This document shows positions 1,836 to 64,000 of a DNA stretch of 64,000 nucleotides, one piece after another. The first letter of the stretch is position 1, and each line of letters opens with the position of its first letter. The stretch spans positions 288,001 to 352,000 of the forward strand of contig CAWBOS010000006.1 of the NCBI GenBank assembly GCA_963790475.1, in the 5' to 3' direction. A program made the translations under genes and the position numbers. The notes under the pieces were generated by a model, which ran no database searches, had not been told where the DNA came from, and saw only the letters and a list, made by a program, of their open reading frames with translations. This DNA is from an uncultured delta proteobacterium (lineage in GTDB: Bacteria > Desulfobacterota > RBG-13-43-22).

Positions 1836-2052
1836 GCCGGGGCAAAGCTCTCGTTTACGGTTTTTGTTGTTTTCCGAAAATCCTCCCTGCCCTGATCAGA
1901 GGTCTCGATCAGATATCTCCTGTTTTGGAGTTGTCCCCTGAAAATCCAGGAAATATCTGATCTCCGAACTAATCCCCTGATCACATCGAGTCCCTAATTC
2001 ATCGATCACCCAAGGTTACTCAAATAGCGGTGGATGGACAGGTACCGGCACT

Positions 2053-2706
2053 CTATTTCTTAAATTTACCTGGAAATTGCTTGACGATGCCATCGGTCAG
2101 TGTATCGGCCAGCATCAGTATATGGTCATGGCCTTTGTCGTAATAACTTATATCGCCATCCCAATCCTTTTTAAGTCTGGAAACCACTTCCCCCGTGGTA
2201 ACCGTCAGATGTTTATATAAACTATTGACCAGTTCCTGCTTGGGCCAATGCGGATTTGCGCCGCTCAGGAACGTAGCGATCTCTTCGGCATTATCCTCCC
2301 ATTTCTTTTTAGCGGTTAAGAACTCCTCCTGAGTGCCTTTTTTTGCCGATGTTACCACCTCAGCGGCAATCAAGATATGGTCTCGGAGCAAACCGGCTAA
2401 TTTTTTTCCGGCCTCCTCTCCGTAGAAGGGCTTTATCGCCTCCCCGATACTATCCTGATTTTTTAGAAGTCTCTCGGCAATTTTAGCGGTGTCTTGAAGC
2501 TCGGCCAGGGCACTTATGATGTAATTTCGTGTATAGGTAATATGGTCTTCCCATAGTTTCCTCATGGACATTCTTAAATCAATGACCGATTTTTTGCACA
2601 ACATGGTGCCGGTCGCCTTGCCCTTCATAGGTTCCGCATATGAAATACTGACCATAAAGATACCAATCAGTCCAATCAAGATCCCGGCTGATATTATTCT
2701 TTTCAT
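2053..2706 (-). CDS. Secreted all-helical protein of unknown function with repeated His motifs
   Basis: N-terminal signal peptide (MKRIISAGILIGLIGIFMVSISYA); LWEDH, LLRDH, LYKH, HDH motifs; RBS GGAGG upstream. Confidence 0.7.
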   Translation of the reverse strand: MKRIISAGILIGLIGIFMVSISYAEPMKGKATGTMLCKKSVIDLRMSMRKLWEDHITYTRNYIISALAELQDTAKIAERLLKNQDSIGEAIKPFYGEEAGKKLAGLLRDHILIAAEVVTSAKKGTQEEFLTAKKKWEDNAEEIATFLSGANPHWPKQELVNSLYKHLTVTTGEVVSRLKKDWDGDISYYDKGHDHILMLADTLTDGIVKQFPGKFKK

Positions 2707-2960
2707 GTCATCCTCCTGTATTAATTTTAGTTTAAGTAATGAAAGGTGAATTTTGAAAGGAATACTATCTTGCTTTTTTTAGGGATGCAATGAAAAATTA
2801 TGAGAATAATCCTGTTGGGTTGTTTAAGCCGGAATTTTTTAACTTGGGTAGATCAGGAGAAGAGAAAAAGTTTCAATAGGCCATTGACTAAAAGAGAAGA
2901 ACTTTATACTATCTAACATAATAAAGCCGATCATAAGGGTTTATACAAAAAGGAGTTGGT

Positions 2961-3656
2961 TTGAAGGAAGTGGCCGAGTTATTAAAACAGAATCCCCTCT
3001 TCAGCGGCCTTGATGAAGCTGGACTTGACAAGGTCAAAGGGATTACCTCACACCATTTTTATAAAAAAGGGAGCATCCTTTTCTCCCAAGGTGATGGGGC
3101 TCATGGTTTCTACCTGGTGACCGAAGGGAAGATAAAAATATATCGCCTGTCGCCTAATGGCCAGGAATATGTCATGCGCCTGGTTGGACCTGGAGAAACG
3201 ATCGCCGAGGCGGCGGTTTTTTCCGGAAAAACCTACCCGGCCTCGGCTGAGGCCCTGGAGGATAGCCGGCTCTACTACCTGAATAAATCGGATTTCACGG
3301 CCCTCATCCGAGAGAGTCCCCAACTGGCCCTTAATATGATGACCGGTCTATCTCTTTTGTTGAGGGATTTGGCCCAACAGGTGGAAGATCTTTCTTTAAA
3401 GGAAGTCTCGGCCCGTCTGGCCCGTTTTCTGATCGCTGAGGCTGAAAAAATTTCTTCTGTACCGGCCAATGGACTCAAAATTCCCCTGGAAATGAAAAAA
3501 AATCTTCTGGCCAGCCGCTTGGGGACCATTGGGGAAACCCTGTCCCGCACTTTGTCAAAAATGAAACAGAAAGAAATTATCCATATCGATAAGGGCATCA
3601 TAACCATCCGGAATTTTGAGACCCTGAAAGAAATTGCTGAAGGAATAAAACTATAA
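2961..3656 (+). CDS. Crp/Fnr family transcriptional regulator
   Basis: cNMP-binding domain (LFSQGD..FYLVTEGKIK) and C-terminal HTH GTIGETLSRTL; TTG start after AGGAG. Confidence 0.9.
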   Translation: MKEVAELLKQNPLFSGLDEAGLDKVKGITSHHFYKKGSILFSQGDGAHGFYLVTEGKIKIYRLSPNGQEYVMRLVGPGETIAEAAVFSGKTYPASAEALEDSRLYYLNKSDFTALIRESPQLALNMMTGLSLLLRDLAQQVEDLSLKEVSARLARFLIAEAEKISSVPANGLKIPLEMKKNLLASRLGTIGETLSRTLSKMKQKEIIHIDKGIITIRNFETLKEIAEGIKL

Positions 3657-53230: not shown

Positions 53231-54538
53231 ATGGATGCTTTAATTCTTTCCCGGCTGCAGTTCGCGGCGGCCACTATTTTTCATTTTTTATTTGTGCCCT
53301 TGACCCTGGGTCTTTCCATTATGATCGCCATCATGGAAAACCGTTACGCTCGAACGGGAGAAGAGGTCTATCTGAAAATGACCCGATTCTGGGGCAAAAT
53401 CTTTCTGATCAATTTTGCCCTGGGGATCGTCACCGGCATTACCCTCGAATTCCAGTTCGGTACCAACTGGTCCCGTTATTCCGCCTTTGTGGGGGACATC
53501 TTCGGATCCCTCCTGGCCATAGAAGCCACGGCGGCCTTTTTTCTGGAATCCACTTTTATCGGGATCTGGATCTTCGGCTGGAAAAAGCTTTCGCCTAAGG
53601 CCCATGCCATAGTGATGTGGTTTGTTGCCGGGGCTTCCACCCTTTCCGCTCTCTGGATACTTACGGCCAATGCCTGGATGCAACATCCGGTAGGTTATGT
53701 ATTGCGAAACGGACGGGCGGAACTGGAGAGCTTCACCGCCGTCATTTTTCAAGAATTCGCCATCCTGGAAATTCTCCACACCCTCAGTGCCGCATATATT
53801 CTAAGCGCCTTTTTTGTCATGGGGATCAGCGCCTATCATCTCCTCAAAAAACAGCATGTTGATTTCTTCACCCGTTCCTTTCGAATCGCCTTAACCTTCG
53901 GACTGATCTTTTCCCTTTTTGAAGTGGTGGAAGGCCACCTTCACGGCTCCGATCTGGCGGTGAAACAACCGGCCAAATTGGCGGCCATGGAAGCCCACTG
54001 GGAGACCTCCAAGCAGGCCCCGGTCTATCTTTTCGCTCTTCCTGATGAGACTAATGAAAAAAATACCCTTGAAATTCTACCCCTGCCGGGGGTGCTCAGT
54101 TTGCTGGCCACCCATTCCCTGGATGGAGTAGTCAAGGGCCTCAAAGATATCCCAAGGGGTGAAAGGCCGCCGGTACTTATCAATTTTGCCTCATTTAAAA
54201 CCATGGTTGCCTTAGGCATGTATTTCGTCCTCATGACCCTGGTCGGTTTTTTCAAAAGAAACCGTCTTTCGGAAAGCCCGGGCTATTTGAAACTGATGCT
54301 CTATTCAATCCCCCTGCCTTATATCGCCATTGAATTGGGATGGGTCCTGGCCGAAGTGGGGCGCCAGCCCTGGATTGTTTACGGCGTCATGAAGACTTCC
54401 GAAGCCTTCTCTCCTGTGGCCACGTCCCAGGTTTTGACCAGTTTAATAGCCTTTATCCTGATTTATGGAATTTTGGGGGCTATTGGATACTTTCTCATCA
54501 TCAGGCAGGCCAGAAAAGGGCCCGAGCTTGCCGGATGA
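53231..54538 (+). CDS. cydA: Cytochrome bd ubiquinol oxidase subunit I
   Basis: FHFLFVPLTLG, EFQFGTNW, WMQHP, QPAKLAAME, EVGRQPW. Confidence 0.97.
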   Translation: MDALILSRLQFAAATIFHFLFVPLTLGLSIMIAIMENRYARTGEEVYLKMTRFWGKIFLINFALGIVTGITLEFQFGTNWSRYSAFVGDIFGSLLAIEATAAFFLESTFIGIWIFGWKKLSPKAHAIVMWFVAGASTLSALWILTANAWMQHPVGYVLRNGRAELESFTAVIFQEFAILEILHTLSAAYILSAFFVMGISAYHLLKKQHVDFFTRSFRIALTFGLIFSLFEVVEGHLHGSDLAVKQPAKLAAMEAHWETSKQAPVYLFALPDETNEKNTLEILPLPGVLSLLATHSLDGVVKGLKDIPRGERPPVLINFASFKTMVALGMYFVLMTLVGFFKRNRLSESPGYLKLMLYSIPLPYIAIELGWVLAEVGRQPWIVYGVMKTSEAFSPVATSQVLTSLIAFILIYGILGAIGYFLIIRQARKGPELAG

Positions 54539-54593
54539 TTGAACCATCAAAGGGGCCTTCTATTACCAGTCAGCTCAAGAAAGGAGAGGGACA

Positions 54594-55610
54594 ATGATTT
54601 TACAAGATATATGGTTTTTCGTCTGGGGGCTGTTATGGGCCATTTATTTTTTAACCGATGGTTTCGATCTGGGGATAGGATCGCTTCTTCCTTTCCTGGG
54701 GAAAGATGAGGATTCAAAAAAAGTCATGATTGCGGCTATGGGACCTTTATGGGACGGCAATGAGGTCTGGTTGCTGACCGCGGGAGGAGTAACCTTCGCC
54801 GCTTTTCCTCAAGTCTATGCCGTCATGTTCAGCTCCCTCTATTCGGCATTGATGCTGATCCTCTTTGCCCTCATCCTGCGGGGGGTTTCTCTGGAATTCA
54901 GAAGTAAAATCGAAAGCCCGGGCTGGAAGAAGCTGTGGGATACCTGTCTGTTCCTGGGAAGTCTATTGCCGGCCATTCTCTTCGGGGCGGCTTTTGCCAA
55001 TATTTTTCGGGGAATTCCTTTTGATCAAAACGGCGTTTATCAGGGCACTCTCTTCACCCTGCTCAATCCCTATGGGCTTCTTGGGGGCATCCTCTTTCTC
55101 TTTCTTTTTTTGGTGCATGGCGCCAACTGGCTGGCCATCAAAAGCGATGGGGAACTCCAGGAAAGGGCGATTAAAACCGGAAAATATTTGTGGCCACTTT
55201 TGTTAATCGCCGCCGTCATCTTTCTCGGAGCTACCTACTATTCAACCCCTCTTTACAATAATTATTTCAACCATCCCCTTCTTTTCTTAGTCATCCTGGT
55301 GACCGTATCGGCCCTGCTGGGCATCCGTTTTTTCTTGAGTTCCGGAAGTCTGTGGAAGGCTTGGTTTTCCTCTGCCCTGACCATTATAGGCGCTACCTTT
55401 TTTGGGATCATCGGCCTGTATCCGAATATGTTCCCATCAAACCTGAACCCGGTTTATAGCCTGACAGCCCACAATGCCTCTTCCAGTCCCTTGACCTTGA
55501 AAATAATGTTGACCGTGGCCCTTATTTTTGTGCCCGTTGTCCTGGTTTATCAAATCTGGACCTACGTTCTGTTTAAAGGAAAAGTCAGCAGCGAGGATTT
55601 GTCTTACTGA
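54594..55610 (+). CDS. cydB: Cytochrome bd ubiquinol oxidase subunit II
   Basis: DGFDLG, GPLWDGNEVWL, FAAFP. Confidence 0.97.
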   Translation: MILQDIWFFVWGLLWAIYFLTDGFDLGIGSLLPFLGKDEDSKKVMIAAMGPLWDGNEVWLLTAGGVTFAAFPQVYAVMFSSLYSALMLILFALILRGVSLEFRSKIESPGWKKLWDTCLFLGSLLPAILFGAAFANIFRGIPFDQNGVYQGTLFTLLNPYGLLGGILFLFLFLVHGANWLAIKSDGELQERAIKTGKYLWPLLLIAAVIFLGATYYSTPLYNNYFNHPLLFLVILVTVSALLGIRFFLSSGSLWKAWFSSALTIIGATFFGIIGLYPNMFPSNLNPVYSLTAHNASSSPLTLKIMLTVALIFVPVVLVYQIWTYVLFKGKVSSEDLSY

Positions 55611-55782: not shown

Positions 55783-56208
55783 ATGGAAACATTAGTCATC
55801 GAAAATCAGATTGGAGCCGCCAAAGGTACCGACGTGGAAAAGGAGGTCATGGATAATTTCCGGGGCGAGACCGCCGAGGTGGGTCTTTATCTGGCTATGG
55901 CCCGGCAGGCCGAACGTGAAGGCTATCCCGAAGTGGCCAGGGCTTTGAAGGATATCGCCTGGGATGAGGCCAACCATGCGGCTCAGTTCGCTGAGCTAAA
56001 TGGCCTTATCTCCCCCAGCACCAAGGAAAACATCGAACGGATGCTGAAGGGAGAACGGATGGCCAATAAAGGTAAACAAGAGGCGTCAATAAAGGCGGCC
56101 CAATGCGGTCTGATTTCCTGCCAGATCTTTTTCGGCGAATCGGCCAGGGATGAGGGCCGTCATGCCCGGGCCTTGGAAGGACTCTTGAAGCGCCACTTTT
56201 CGTCATAA
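55783..56208 (+). CDS. Rubrerythrin-like ferritin-fold protein
   Basis: GETAEVGLYLAMARQA, EANH and EGRH di-iron motifs. Confidence 0.88.
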   Translation: METLVIENQIGAAKGTDVEKEVMDNFRGETAEVGLYLAMARQAEREGYPEVARALKDIAWDEANHAAQFAELNGLISPSTKENIERMLKGERMANKGKQEASIKAAQCGLISCQIFFGESARDEGRHARALEGLLKRHFSS

Positions 56209-58941: not shown

Positions 58942-61230
58942 TTATTGCCGGCCCATGGCCACATTAAAGTCCCCCTCCGGATCATGGTGCGCATCGCCCT
59001 GAACATCCACCACAACTTTTTTCAAGGTCCCGGAGAAAGAAAAAGGACACTGGTAATTTTCGCTCACCGGGGTGGTTGTGTCGCGTCCGATTTCGAGGCC
59101 CTCTGAAATCGAATTGCGGATAGGGACGGTGCGGGCAATCTTCCCCTCCCCGACTTTGGCCTTGTTGATAAATAGCGCCCCCTCGCCTTGGTGCTCCCCG
59201 GTTTTGCTGAAGACAAACCGCAGGGTCGAAGGGCCTTTGGGCACCTCGACTTCGGAAGTCACAACATAGTGCGCGGTCCCCAAAAAGTTGTGGTCATATA
59301 TCAGGCGATTGTTCTGCAGGTAGAGGGTGTAGCCTCCGAACCGGCCTCCCCGGGCCAGCAGGACACCTTCGGCCCCGCCTTCGGGAATTTCGACCTCGGC
59401 GCTGATGGAGTGGGAACGGTTCCGGGTGTCGGGAGCGATCCCCTCCGGGATCATGGAGGTGCCCGGGTAAAAGGTAAAAGAAGTCCTACCCTGGTCCAGC
59501 CGGGGTTTTTGATCGGTAAAGCGCAGACCGGTGCGATCATCGAGGGGCAGGACCTGGTATTTACCGGCCTCAGCCCACCAGCGATCCACCAGTTCGCGGA
59601 GCTTTCCGGGTTCCGATTGAGCCAGGTCGTGACACTCGGAAAAATCCTGGTCCAGGTGGTATAACTCCCAGTGGTCGTCGTCGAAGTTTCCCCCTGCCCT
59701 CGGCGAGTGGTAGGTCACGGCCTTCCAGCCATCGTGCCAGATACCCCGGTGTCCGAACATTTCGTAGTACTGCACTTCCTTACGGGTTGGGGCCTGCGGG
59801 TCTTCGAAGCTGTAAAGCATGCTCAGGCCCTCGATGGGTTTTTGGGTGATCCCGTTCAGCACTTCGGGCGCCTCAATCCCGATGGCTTCCAGTACGGTCG
59901 GGACTATGTCGGTAACGTGATGATACTGAGTACGAATGCCCTCCTGCACCCGGATGCCCTTGGGCCAGTGCCGGATGCCCATGGGCCAGTGAATGATGAG
60001 GGGGTCCCGGACACCACCGCCGTGGGTGTTCTGCTTGTAGCGCTTGAGGGGCGTGTTTCCGGCCATGGCCCAGCCCCTGGGGTAGTGGTTGAAAGTCCGG
60101 GGCCCGCCGAGTTCGTCGATCCGGGCCAGGTTCTCCTCCAGGGTCTCGGGCAGGGCGTTGAAAAAGCGGTTCTCATTGAGCGAACCATGCCAGTATCCCT
60201 CCTGGCTGGCCCCGTTGTCTGAAATCAGGATGATCAGCGTATTATCCATCTGATCGGTTTCTTCCAGGAAATCGAGGAAGCGGCCGATATGATGATCGGT
60301 GTGGTCCATAAACCCGGCAAAGACCTCCTGCATCCGGGTGTACAGACGACGCTGGTCATCGGAGAGTTCGGCCCAGGCCTTGATCCCCGGGTTGCGCGGG
60401 GCAAGCTCGGTTTCGGGAGGAACGATCCCCATCTCCTTCTGCCGGGCCAGGACCTCCTCGCGCTCCGCGTCCCAGCCCCGGTCGAACCTGCCTTTGTACT
60501 TGGCGATAAATTCCTTGGGGGCGTGGTGTGGGGCATGGCAGGCGCCGAAGGCCATCCACAGGAAAAAGGGCTTGTCCGGGTCGATCTGCCGCTGGTCTAA
60601 AACGAACTCTATGGATTTGTCGACGATGTCCTCGGTCAGGTGATAACCGGGGCGGTCCGGCTGCTGGATCCGATGATTGTCGTAAACCAGGTCCGGGTTC
60701 CACTGACTGGTATCCCCTCCCAGGAATCCGTAAAAACGATCGAATCCCATTCCCAGCGGCCAGCGGTCGTAGGGGCCGGCGGCGCTGGTCTCTTCCTCCG
60801 GGGTGTTATGCCACTTGCCCACGGCAAAGGTGCCGTAGCCGCTTTCTCTGAGGATATGGGCCACGGTCCCGGCACTTTTCGGAATCCGGCCATTGTATCC
60901 GGGGTATCCGGTGGAGAGTTCGGTGATGATCCCCGTCCCGACTGAATGGTGGTTTCGTCCGGTGAGCAGACAGGACCTGGAGGGTGAGCACAAGGCCGTG
61001 GTGTGAAAGTTGTTGTAGCGCAGACCGCCGGCCGCCAGGCGGTCCATGTTGGGTGTTTCAATCCCGGCTCCGTAGCAACCCAGTTGGGCGAAGCCGACGT
61101 CGTCCAGGATGATGAAGACGACATTCGGGCTTCCTTTGGGGGCCCGCTTGGGTTTCGGCCACCAGGGGGTAGACTCGTTGATAGTTCGGCCGATGACTCC
61201 CTGCCAGGGTTCGGACTTCCGGTTTGACAT
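58942..61230 (-). CDS. Arylsulfatase (Cys-type, formylglycine-dependent)
   Basis: LDDVG, CSPSRSCLLTGR, GKWH, SDNG. Confidence 0.95.
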   Translation of the reverse strand: MSNRKSEPWQGVIGRTINESTPWWPKPKRAPKGSPNVVFIILDDVGFAQLGCYGAGIETPNMDRLAAGGLRYNNFHTTALCSPSRSCLLTGRNHHSVGTGIITELSTGYPGYNGRIPKSAGTVAHILRESGYGTFAVGKWHNTPEEETSAAGPYDRWPLGMGFDRFYGFLGGDTSQWNPDLVYDNHRIQQPDRPGYHLTEDIVDKSIEFVLDQRQIDPDKPFFLWMAFGACHAPHHAPKEFIAKYKGRFDRGWDAEREEVLARQKEMGIVPPETELAPRNPGIKAWAELSDDQRRLYTRMQEVFAGFMDHTDHHIGRFLDFLEETDQMDNTLIILISDNGASQEGYWHGSLNENRFFNALPETLEENLARIDELGGPRTFNHYPRGWAMAGNTPLKRYKQNTHGGGVRDPLIIHWPMGIRHWPKGIRVQEGIRTQYHHVTDIVPTVLEAIGIEAPEVLNGITQKPIEGLSMLYSFEDPQAPTRKEVQYYEMFGHRGIWHDGWKAVTYHSPRAGGNFDDDHWELYHLDQDFSECHDLAQSEPGKLRELVDRWWAEAGKYQVLPLDDRTGLRFTDQKPRLDQGRTSFTFYPGTSMIPEGIAPDTRNRSHSISAEVEIPEGGAEGVLLARGGRFGGYTLYLQNNRLIYDHNFLGTAHYVVTSEVEVPKGPSTLRFVFSKTGEHQGEGALFINKAKVGEGKIARTVPIRNSISEGLEIGRDTTTPVSENYQCPFSFSGTLKKVVVDVQGDAHHDPEGDFNVAMGRQ

Positions 61231-61410
61231 CTTGGCCTCCTGTTTAATAAGGGGGAAAGACCCCAGTCATAAATTTTTATAAGAATTCTTTTGGGATGGG
61301 GAAATTATAGAATAAGGAAAAGGGGGTATCAAGGAGAAAAAAGGGAACCGTAGGCCAGGGGGGGAGGGTAATACATTTTTCCCGATGCCGCGGAATTCAA
61401 CCCTTAATCA

Positions 61411-62067
61411 TTAAATCCGAAATTTTCGGGCATGTTCTTCTGACCAGAAGAAAACACACTCCGTTCAGAATGAATCGATAATACTATCGTCTTTGAGTTT
61501 GGAAAAATCTATATCCGGTACAAGAATTACCGGCTGGCATCTTTCGTCTCTGGCTTTATAGTGTAAATCGTTGTCAATCTCGATTCCCATGGGACGAGAG
61601 CAGTGGGCGCATTCGGTTTCAATGTGCACAATCAGATGTTCGTTTCGCAATTTCCCTTGCACGAAGGGCGTTGCAAAGGCATCTGCCGCTCAGGCGGCAT
61701 ACAATTTTTCACCGGTACTAAAAGTAATTTTGTGAGGCGTTTCATCAACTGTCACCGGATAGGCCCAGACCACCTCCCCCTCTCTGTTTCGGTAGAGAAA
61801 GGTCAGGCGCTTTTCCAAATAATCCAAAGCTTTTTTAACACGATCGACAGGAGAGCCAATGTCGTCCGATATAAATTCCGGGGATAAAGGCTTGCCTTTA
61901 CGCGGAAGTTCTCTCACCACAAAATGATGAACCCGGCGATATTCTTCGGATAGAGCGCCTTGCTCTTTTTCAAATCTTCTTTTTCCCTTGGCAATTTGTT
62001 TTTGCCATAAAAATGGCGGCACATTTACTATATACCGCCACAATCCGAGCATGAGTTTGTTACTCAT
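61411..62067 (-). CDS. MerB-like organometal lyase, probable selenoprotein with two in-frame UGA codons (218 aa)
   Basis: ORFs 62067-61690 and 61662-61465 are in the same frame; read-through gives AYP..TPH..LYAA-U-AAD..ECAHC..SF-U-TECVFFWSEEHA; TAA at 61411. Confidence 0.8.
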
Positions 62068-62143
62068 AGATCACCCCCGGGGCATGTTCTCGAAGGTCCC
62101 CTTGCCCTACCGATATGACCTCTTAAGCAAAGTTCCTCGATGA

Positions 62144-62692
62144 TTAGAACAAGAACTTTGCCCCGAAGAGAACAGAGACAAAGAAATTATCACTCCCCCG
62201 GACATCAAGATTGGTGAAATTGAAGAGGACGGTACCATCCAACGATATCGAATTTGTCAATTTATACTCGGCCCCCAAACCTAAAGGAATAAGGAAATTG
62301 GTATCGTTTTCGCTTCCCCCTCCTCCCGGTTTAAAATCAGCATAGGCCAATCCGAGGCCAGCCTGGACGTGGGGTTTGAGGTTTGGAAGGCCCCCGAGGT
62401 CGAAGGTATATTTTGCCTGGACAGTTAGACCCATTAAAAAGAGATCATTGGTGAATCCCATTTGGAGAAGCGGACCGACTGAGAACTCATTGGTAAGGTA
62501 GTAATCGCCGGAAAAGGCAACAGCAAAGGCGGTATGATCAGGTGTATTGGCTATAAAACCCACAGCAGGTTCAAAGGTAAACCTCCCCATTCTGTCTGCG
62601 GCCCCGGCGAATGAGACTTGTGAAACAATCACCAAGGTAATTACGACCCCGACCAGGAAAGGCATGATGTTGGATGGCTTTGTTGCTTTCAT
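62144..62692 (-). CDS. Outer-membrane 8-stranded beta-barrel protein
   Basis: Signal peptide, alternating strands, PHVQAGLG, terminal Phe. Confidence 0.75.
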   Translation of the reverse strand: MKATKPSNIMPFLVGVVITLVIVSQVSFAGAADRMGRFTFEPAVGFIANTPDHTAFAVAFSGDYYLTNEFSVGPLLQMGFTNDLFLMGLTVQAKYTFDLGGLPNLKPHVQAGLGLAYADFKPGGGGSENDTNFLIPLGLGAEYKLTNSISLDGTVLFNFTNLDVRGSDNFFVSVLFGAKFLF

Positions 62693-63001
62693 TGTTAAAT
62701 CTCCTTTTCGCATTTTATTGGTTATGAAGGCATTGACAAATTGACACTGTAAAATCGGTTTGGATGGTCGGCCCCCGGCTCCCGGAGGACTCAATAAGAT
62801 ATTAATTTCTGTTATGTTGGGTTAAGAAAACGCCAACATAAGTCAAATATAACCTTGGCTTCTTTACAAAAAAGTTTAGCAGGAACGCTCTCAAGAATCA
62901 ATAAGATCAAGTCTGTATTTTCGTCCTGAGAAAACTGTATTTTATCGACCAAGACGCAGAAATGGAACTCTTGGAACAACCGTCTCAGGTTCGCTGAAGA
63001 T

Positions 63002-63698: not shown

Positions 63699-64000
63699 TT
63701 ACGGCACTCTAAAATCAAAAAAATTGTGGCACTTGTTACAATAGGATTCCGATTTACGATGAGCCTTGTGGCACAGACCGCATTCGATATTTCCTGAATG
63801 AGATTCATGGGGATTGGGTGTCAAACCCCTGGTCAATTTGGCTACCTCCGGATAGTTTTTATGACAGGAGAGGCATTGGGCGGTGGTCAGCGCCTTGTGA
63901 GAAGTGGCTTCGCCGTGGCAGTTCCGGCAGGAGATCCCCTTCCATAGATGCAGATGGCTCAAGGGGACTTTACCCCAAAGGTTTTGTTCCTTACGACTGT
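63699..64000 (-). CDS. Small tetraheme cytochrome c (5' end outside window)
   Basis: Four CxxCH: CRNCH, CLSCH, CGLCH, CNKCH; NPH.SH. Confidence 0.88.
   Translation of the reverse strand, partial: SRKEQNLWGKVPLSHLHLWKGISCRNCHGEATSHKALTTAQCLSCHKNYPEVAKLTRGLTPNPHESHSGNIECGLCHKAHRKSESYCNKCHNFFDFRVP

Follow-up and report, generated by a model that had tools for sequence, protein, structure and literature searches.

A widespread MerB-fold family predicted to carry selenocysteine at both catalytic cysteine positions, and its truncated copy in an uncultured Desulfobacterota bacterium

Within a 64,000-nucleotide stretch of DNA from an uncultured delta proteobacterium (Desulfobacterota; GenBank assembly GCA_963790475.1, contig CAWBOS010000006.1, positions 288,001 to 352,000 of the forward strand; hereafter the window), a reverse-strand gene with two in-frame TGA codons encodes a protein related to the organomercurial lyase MerB. 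The locus is very likely a member of a conserved and widespread MerB-fold selenoprotein family in which selenocysteine (Sec, U) stands at the positions of MerB Cys96 and Cys159 while Asp99 is kept, and of which the window holds a recently truncated copy.

Results

Two short open reading frames form one gene with UGA codons at the MerB cysteines

Two open reading frames (ORFs) of 125 and 65 amino acids (62067-61690 and 61662-61465) share a reverse-strand frame and each is closed by a TGA. With TGA translated as Sec they join into a single product of 218 residues, containing U126 and U201 and ending at a TAA (61413-61411), so that the fusion of both ORFs into one gene running through to the TAA at 61411, made by the original prediction from the window alone, is borne out. 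The gene and its proposed recoding elements are placed as follows.

61411-62067, reverse strand: coding sequence of the MerB-like selenoprotein in this copy, 218 amino acids plus TAA, with two UGA codons read through
62071-62078, reverse strand: putative Shine-Dalgarno-like sequence GGGGGTGA, read from the sequence, directly upstream of the ATG
61690-61692, reverse strand: UGA codon 126, predicted Sec at the MerB Cys96 position within the motif U-A-A-D, in which Asp129 corresponds to Asp99 (alignment to PDB MerB)
61652-61670, reverse strand: candidate selenocysteine insertion sequence (SECIS) 1, (CG)CCCUU-CGUGC-AAGGG(CG), loop start 26 nt after the UGA
61465-61467, reverse strand: UGA codon 201, predicted Sec at the MerB Cys159 position (alignment to a PDB MerB C160S mutant)
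61430-61457, reverse strand: candidate SECIS 2, GUGU.UUCUUCU-GGUC-AGAAGAA.CAUGC, loop start 19 nt after the UGA

Run on the translation with UGA as U, the Pfam MerB profile (PF03243) matches residues 106-217 of the window protein with 43.6 bits (cut-off 27), in keeping with the MerB likeness first noticed by eye; in the six-frame search of the genome the same gene scores 27 bits, right at the cut-off. Alignments to PDB MerB (phmmer) place LYAA-U-AAD opposite LYAW-C-ALD at the first site and SF-U-TECVFF opposite SF-C-SHVHFF at the second, and since the aligned partner at the second site is the C160S mutant, the cysteine it retains there is Cys159. Both UGAs fall, as had been proposed, on catalytic cysteines of MerB, whose active site is given as Cys96, Asp99 and Cys159 in the accessible text of Haft & Gwadz (bioRxiv 10.1101/2022.07.06.499078). 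The three triad positions are all filled and invariant, with Sec, Asp and Sec in place of Cys96, Asp99 and Cys159, and Sec in the triad can be read as a chemically analogous replacement of Cys.

The fold points the same way. An AF2 model of a full-length orthologue (pLDDT 81.7, pTM 0.82) has as its 11 best Foldseek matches in the PDB only MerB and MerB2 entries (E 1.7e-12 to 4.9e-8), and the family profile finds MerB2 and MerB in the PDB at E 5e-7 to 9e-5. The family shares with MerB/MerB2 (EC 4.99.1.2; PDB 3F0O, 3F0P, 3F2F, 5C17) the same fold (Foldseek TM 0.74-0.80, target-normalised, for the full-length orthologue model), the same three active-site positions in the same order, and a C-terminal strand and helix. 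It differs in sequence (only about 16-19% identity), in having Sec for both Cys, and in about 40 extra N-terminal residues and an E-C-A-H-C motif; no merA, merR, merT or merP surrounds the window gene.

Both UGA codons are conserved and the segments behind them are constrained

Relatives were collected by scanning one genome per species, which yielded 169 loci encoding a relative, of which the best 80 were taken; at least 7 of these 80 are contigs already among the eight orthologues, described below, from 61 related genomes. Alignments of hairpins, codons, tails and dN/dS (the ratio of nonsynonymous to synonymous substitution rates) comprise 79 of the 80 loci (L117 left out) plus the window, while the structure-based alignment (A4) has 65 rows: 63 of the 79 loci (240-262 amino acids, M start), the orthologue from the related genome G008 and the window protein. 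TGA stands at both sites in 80/80 loci, 71 by a strict pattern and 9 by inspection, well beyond what chance would give, and L117 is among those that carry it at both. All 80 loci come from metagenome-assembled genomes (MAGs), which belong to Desulfobacterales, Syntrophales/Smithellaceae, Desulfomonilaceae, Desulfatiglandales, Nitrospirota, Anaerolineales, Dehalococcoidia, Candidatus Abyssobacteria and others. The motif U-x-x-D is likewise present in 80/80 loci, and D129 is invariant in A4.

Among the 61 related genomes, 11 (the window's own included) have a match. The eight full-length orthologues, from three genera of one family and 53-82% identical to the window protein, all contain exactly two internal TGAs at the same two codons; the closest, that of G008, is 82% identical over residues 1-217. 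The remaining matches are a 32-residue piece in G020 and a weak, stop-free match in G055, and G007 has a weak second match with two TGAs and one TAA.

Within a collection of 5.8 billion proteins, 1790 match at E <= 0.001, and the best 120 of these are mostly pieces of 120-125 amino acids that end exactly before U126. Full-length calls from JGI (P0002, P0003, P0005, P0008-P0012 and others) have Trp at both sites because the gene caller switched to a code with TGA as Trp on short contigs; Trp at both Sec positions in public full-length calls is thus a systematic database mistranslation. Site 1 is Cys in two proteins (P0004, P0007) that end directly before site 2, so that Cys/Sec exchange occurs at the first site; Cys at site 2 was not seen within the subfamily and was found only in distant MerB. 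The alternation between TGA and Cys codons that the original prediction had proposed to look for at both positions is accordingly seen at the first alone, beside TGA at both in every one of the 80 loci. In one full-length relative (P0099) site 1 is Gly and site 2 is Leu, both a single base away from TGA; this protein may have lost its activity or taken on another role, or its sequence may be wrong.

Over 315 moderately diverged pairs the median dN/dS is 0.176 for the segment ahead of U126, 0.232 for the one enclosed by the UGAs and 0.13 for the one that follows U201. The segments behind each UGA are, on these ratios, constrained like the segment in front, which indicates purifying selection on all three. 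The E-C-A-H-C motif is conserved, with its second Cys present in 70/80 loci. It reads E-C-A-(L/V)-S-K in five relatives (L087, L092, L094, L097, L104); of its two Cys only the first, C153, which falls close to MerB Cys117 in the alignment, never varies.

A hairpin with frozen synonymous sites follows each UGA

For comparison of the hairpins, the 63 nt after each TGA were aligned for the window and 79 loci, the fold originally proposed for the first being counted on 78 distinct sequences. After the second UGA, the hairpin UUCUUCU-GGUC-AGAAGAA with its loop 19 nt downstream is present just as originally described, and in the family it takes the form GUGU.UUCUUCY-GGUC-RGAAGAA.CAYGC. Of its cells 98.6% are paired, a share that drops to 39-66% if the 3' partner is shifted along. 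The pair closing the loop is U-A in 64 sequences, C-G in 12 and U-G in 2, a compensatory swap in which a Trp/Arg codon change is matched by a synonymous change of a Ser codon. In the window this hairpin folds with -15.0 kcal/mol (z -3.06).

After the first UGA, the conserved candidate is a stem of 5 bp in the window copy and 7 bp in most relatives, with a loop that contains G and U; 92.9% of cells are paired, and pair 24-40 is G-C in 63 sequences and U-A in 5 (5 compensatory cells). The hairpin with a loop lacking G that was proposed earlier at this place does exist in the sequence and is the minimum free energy (MFE) fold of the single window sequence (-15.9 kcal/mol, z -1.34). Across the family a different fold is conserved: this one has 86.9% of its cells paired, shows no covariation and has pair 15-38 broken in 58/78 sequences; the hairpin with the CGUGC loop is preferred.

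Synonymous codon entropy at conserved residues is about 1.5-2 bits (fourfold codons) throughout the gene and collapses only at the two hairpins. Codons 134-138 are nearly frozen (CCC 79/80, TTC 80/80, GTG 80/80, CAA 67/80, GGG 80/80), as are codons 206-211 (TTC 80/80, TTC 80/80, TCA 65 or TCG 15, GAA 80/80, GAA 72/79). These frozen synonymous sites are the strongest evidence for both predicted SECIS elements, for which the support from the alignments is strong in the case of SECIS 2 and moderate in the case of SECIS 1.

The genome encodes the machinery for Sec insertion

The genome (6.34 Mb, 20 contigs, 9.68% contamination) contains all four components, selA, selB, selC and selD, for which a search had been suggested from the start. 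The contig that holds the window also carries the tRNA for Sec (74.3 bits, where the gathering score is 47; anticodon TCA by ARAGORN). SelA scores 543 bits, SelB is also encoded, and SelD (C10:1969676-1970587, forward strand) has one in-frame TGA and is probably itself a selenoprotein. The intact SelA gene (C20:712-1809) sits on a 3.2-kb contig. A second copy (C13:443527-444625, forward strand) is split over several frames with TGA and TAA inside, which might reflect a broken gene, errors in sequencing or a stretch from a second strain binned with this one.

A frameshifting deletion has removed the 3' end of the window copy

The product of 218 residues is not the normal form of the family. All eight orthologues are 247-249 amino acids long and extend 29-31 residues beyond the end of the window protein, with a tail of the form ...HR.RGAY..Q......IQSA.FG(W/F). 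The tail after the second Sec is at least 46 residues in 77/79 relatives (31 and 74 in the others) and 17 in the window. Comparison with G008 (blastn, 87% nucleotide identity) locates the cause in 86 bp missing from the window directly after ...EEHAR; as this length is not divisible by three, the reading frame is displaced and runs into the TAA at 61413-61411.

61421..61422, reverse strand: junction of the 86-bp frameshifting deletion relative to G008 (blastn)
61376-61421, reverse strand: remnant of the original 3' end (last codons, stop region and 3' flank), out of frame, 46 nt with 87% identity to G008

The shift falls after residue 215 and the loss amounts to about 31 codons, so that the coordinates of the originally predicted product stand while its C-terminus does not represent the family. 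In G008, AATAT bounds the lost segment on both sides, and these repeats suggest slippage as the origin of the deletion. What the window copy has lost corresponds, in the AF2 model of the full-length orthologue, to a conserved beta-strand at 225-229 and the terminal helix at 230-245, which align to the C-terminal region of MerB2. Elsewhere the gene shows no damage: the family-invariant residues up to R217 are all retained and dN/dS relative to G008 is 0.167, which is why the lesion appears to be recent.

The junction recurs in a separately built contig of 240 nt (run X1) that is 100% identical over 61357-61596, extends 65 and 175 nt beyond the junction in the two directions, and has a depth of 3.5. 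No contig with the intact form at >=99% identity was found among four sequencing runs. For other contigs, from relatives, the alignment breaks off at precisely 61422, and one loose end reads in frame Y-RRETHRVRG, the intact family sequence. The window copy is probably inactive or weakened, although we hold this with some reserve; four paralogues with two predicted Sec residues, described next, could cover the function of the impaired copy.

Double-TGA genes are the commonest MerB-domain genes in the phylum sample

Searched with the Pfam MerB model, the genome yields five genes, each with two in-frame TGAs: the window gene and four paralogues.

C1:164529-164891, forward strand: paralogue (Pfam MerB)
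C12:1018588-1018938, forward strand: paralogue (Pfam MerB)
C12:164021-164383, reverse strand: paralogue (Pfam MerB)
C10:951246-951593, reverse strand: paralogue (Pfam MerB)

A search of the genome with the window protein returned only the gene itself, the paralogues being too divergent and visible with the Pfam model. The four form a second double-Sec subfamily of 226-235 amino acids (Pfam MerB 46-55 bits) with TGAs at the same two positions. Its first site reads WFGQ-U-GFE, with Glu rather than Asp as the acid, and its second YA-U-STMNLFRSEEH; it has a C-L-D-C motif, and after site 2 the same hairpin (CUUCC-GGUC-GGAAG) and FRSEEH peptide recur. All four proteins score below every NCBIfam MerB and SaoL cut-off, and their neighbourhoods are mutually unrelated.

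Across 151 genomes sampled evenly over the phylum, 21 have a MerB-domain match. Among the 29 matches, 21 have two TGAs, 1 has one and 7 have none; the count is of stops inside an open frame, with positions checked for the genes of the window's own genome and for the window subfamily. No other state of MerB-domain genes is as frequent in this sample as double TGA. The original prediction had called a double-Sec active site outside any mer operon unusual; instead it accounts for most matches in this sample and for five genes in this genome.

The family is distinct from SaoL

The closest described protein is SaoL (NF040728), which the accessible text of its description presents as a MerB-like 'selenocysteine-assisted organometallic lyase' with one Sec in a C-U dipeptide, encoded in a nine-gene SAO locus of Clostridia, spirochaetes and some deltaproteobacteria (Haft & Gwadz, bioRxiv 10.1101/2022.07.06.499078). 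So far as that text goes, SaoL shares with the present family the MerB fold, PF03243, the Asp and a Sec at the Cys159 equivalent, and is likewise a selenoprotein of anaerobes, truncated at UGA in database entries and found outside mer resistance operons. The two differ at the active site, where SaoL as there described has Cys at the Cys96 position and C-U at the second site while the family has Sec at both positions and F-U at the second (80/80). Against the SaoL cut-off of 140 bits the window protein scores 45.4 and a full-length orthologue 41.5. The nine-gene SAO neighbourhood (ABC transporter SaoABP and others) is absent at the window by Pfam annotation of ten neighbouring ORFs. The taxa differ also, the family occurring mainly in MAGs of sediment Desulfobacterota, Nitrospirota and Chloroflexota, in contrast to the Clostridia and spirochaetes of the SaoL description.

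No description of a MerB-like protein with two Sec residues was found in the full-text literature, although the supplements and the image Table 1 of Haft & Gwadz could hold one. In the portions available of two reviews, SaoL is the sole MerB-like selenoprotein entry, and one of the two, from 2026, counts 119 prokaryotic selenoprotein families, most with a single Sec and only a small subset with two or three.

Gene neighbourhood and the mercury genes of the host

The window gene is flanked by genes of unrelated annotation.

58942-61230: sulfatase, 762 amino acids (Pfam)
62144-62794: outer membrane protein (OMP) beta-barrel protein (Pfam)

Further neighbours are an acyltransferase, an AMP-binding enzyme, a DUF6962 protein and a cytochrome c3. 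No mer gene appears in the Pfam annotation of the ten neighbouring ORFs and nowhere in the genome does a MerA match attain the cut-off of 454.45 bits (the best scores 353.9), which agrees with the earlier placement of the gene outside any mer operon. The synteny comparison with G008 aligns only the gene and 46 nt of its 3' flank. In nine clustered loci the only recurrent neighbour is a gene of MarR type (7/9), and of the 75 loci whose upstream flank is 500 nt or longer, 23 have a MarR-family regulator directly upstream on the same strand, with gaps of mostly 28-105 nt. An example is a gene for a protein of 149 amino acids (L029:8121-8570, forward strand). No gene of this type is present in the window or in the loci of the closest relatives.

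Elsewhere in the genome an adjoining pair of genes exceeds the cut-offs for the mercury methylation proteins, which makes the host a putative mercury methylator.

L132 (C10:445500-450500), 1892-3109, reverse strand: hgcA, 438 bits (cut-off 275)
L132, 1589-1879, reverse strand: hgcB, 117 bits (cut-off 99), adjoining hgcA

Near the window gene, at 53231-55610 (forward strand), 55783-56208 (forward strand) and 63699-63998 (reverse strand), lie genes for cytochrome bd oxidase subunits I and II, a rubrerythrin and a cytochrome c3. By their annotation these would serve oxygen defence and electron transfer, a set typical of anaerobes and in line with the lifestyle initially proposed for the host.

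Discussion

The two TGAs admit readings other than Sec. Decay into a pseudogene, the alternative raised with the original prediction, would make them nonsense mutations with the downstream frame open by chance, and it draws on the splitting of the gene at the TGAs by gene callers and on the one real lesion of this copy, the 3' deletion. Against this, the 80 loci, which span several phyla, all have TGA at both sites, dN/dS behind each TGA is 0.13-0.23, the hairpins are conserved and the genome is equipped for Sec insertion; at the level of the family these comparisons refute the pseudogene, and for the locus it is highly improbable. An altered genetic code that reads TGA as Trp or Gly would match the JGI predictions with W at both sites and is, in our estimate, next to incredible: TGA also ends the same gene at the conserved end of the protein in 7/8 orthologues and 42/79 relatives, both sites align to catalytic Cys and not to Trp, dedicated SECIS hairpins and a full Sec machinery exist, and two relatives (P0004, P0007) have Cys at site 1.

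A separate doubt concerns the deletion: the organism's gene might in reality be full-length and functional, and the shortened form an artefact of assembly or consensus calling, or one carried by a minority. The genome resembles a metagenome bin, with its 20 contigs and contamination close to a tenth, the junction is backed by a single contig of low depth (3.5), perhaps from the same sample, and the remainder of the gene is intact with its invariant residues kept up to R217. We nevertheless regard this alternative as very unlikely, given that the X1 contig was built separately and is 100% identical across the junction, that no contig of the intact form emerged from the four runs, and that the AATAT repeat flanks the gap in G008 as it would for a real slippage deletion.

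With Sec at both positions as the preferred reading, the following mechanism can be proposed. SelB and Sec-tRNA(Sec) would bind each hairpin and insert two Sec residues into one polypeptide, which would adopt a MerB-like fold with a Sec-x-x-Asp...Sec diselenolate site able to bind a soft metal. Protonolysis assisted by the Asp would then split the metal-carbon bond, as in MerB, methylmercury or another organometal being the likely substrate. Because the genome lacks MerA, the metal, tightly held by selenium, would have to leave by another route. Lyase activity, cleavage of methylmercury included, is here suggested by analogy from the fold and the triad.

Several observations weigh against this reading of the locus. 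The NCBIfam MerB equivalogs NF009710 and NF033555 are not reached by the window protein (52.6 against 193 and 43.8 against 200 bits), nor by the full-length orthologue (47.7 and 41.0 bits), and since the scores are so far below the equivalog cut-offs the substrate may differ from that of MerB. Catalytic turnover on mercury is uncertain because two selenolates would bind Hg(II) very tightly and there is no MerA. The case for SECIS 1 draws mainly on frozen synonymous sites, with two-sided change in 5 cells only, and its helix is only 5 bp here, where the MFE fold of the single sequence is the longer, G-less one. The window protein lacks nine residues with a conservation of 90% or more in the family (H221, R222, R224, G225, Y227, Q232, Q241, S242, F245), and the contig that confirms the deletion may share its source sample with the assembly.

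On an alternative view the family keeps the MerB fold without being a lyase and uses its two selenolates to act stoichiometrically as a binder, sequesterer, chaperone or sensor of a soft metal (Hg, Cd, Cu, Ag) or of selenium, a role that we judge rather unlikely. It would accord with the lack of MerA or other mer genes to carry a metal away, the scores far below the MerB equivalogs, five paralogues in unrelated neighbourhoods of one genome, the MarR-type regulator directly upstream in 23/75 loci, and the binding of other metals by MerB at this site that is mentioned in the accessible text of Haft & Gwadz (bioRxiv 10.1101/2022.07.06.499078). A pure binder has no obvious need of the proton-donor Asp, which is nonetheless invariant (D129; U-x-x-D 80/80), and against this role stands also the conservation of the whole MerB core, substrate-side elements included.

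The predicted active site of the family consists of two selenolates and an acid, and it is largely hidden from view: public protein sets store the family as stubs of 125 amino acids or with Trp at both sites, and for this reason selenoproteome counts and surveys of 'merB' in anoxic environments miss it. For annotation, the fragments should be joined and the window copy flagged as 3'-truncated.

To our knowledge, the genes for methylmercury degradation in anaerobes without a mer operon have not been settled, and the family, alongside hgcAB in this genome, offers a concrete candidate. That double-Sec MerB-like proteins are mer-independent enzymes of anaerobic organometal turnover, cleaving methylmercury and possibly other methylated soft metals in hgcAB-carrying sediment bacteria, is a speculative proposal to which we attach a low probability. 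If mer-independent cleavage were true, the same cells would make and destroy methylmercury, and its net production in sediments would be tied to the supply of selenium.

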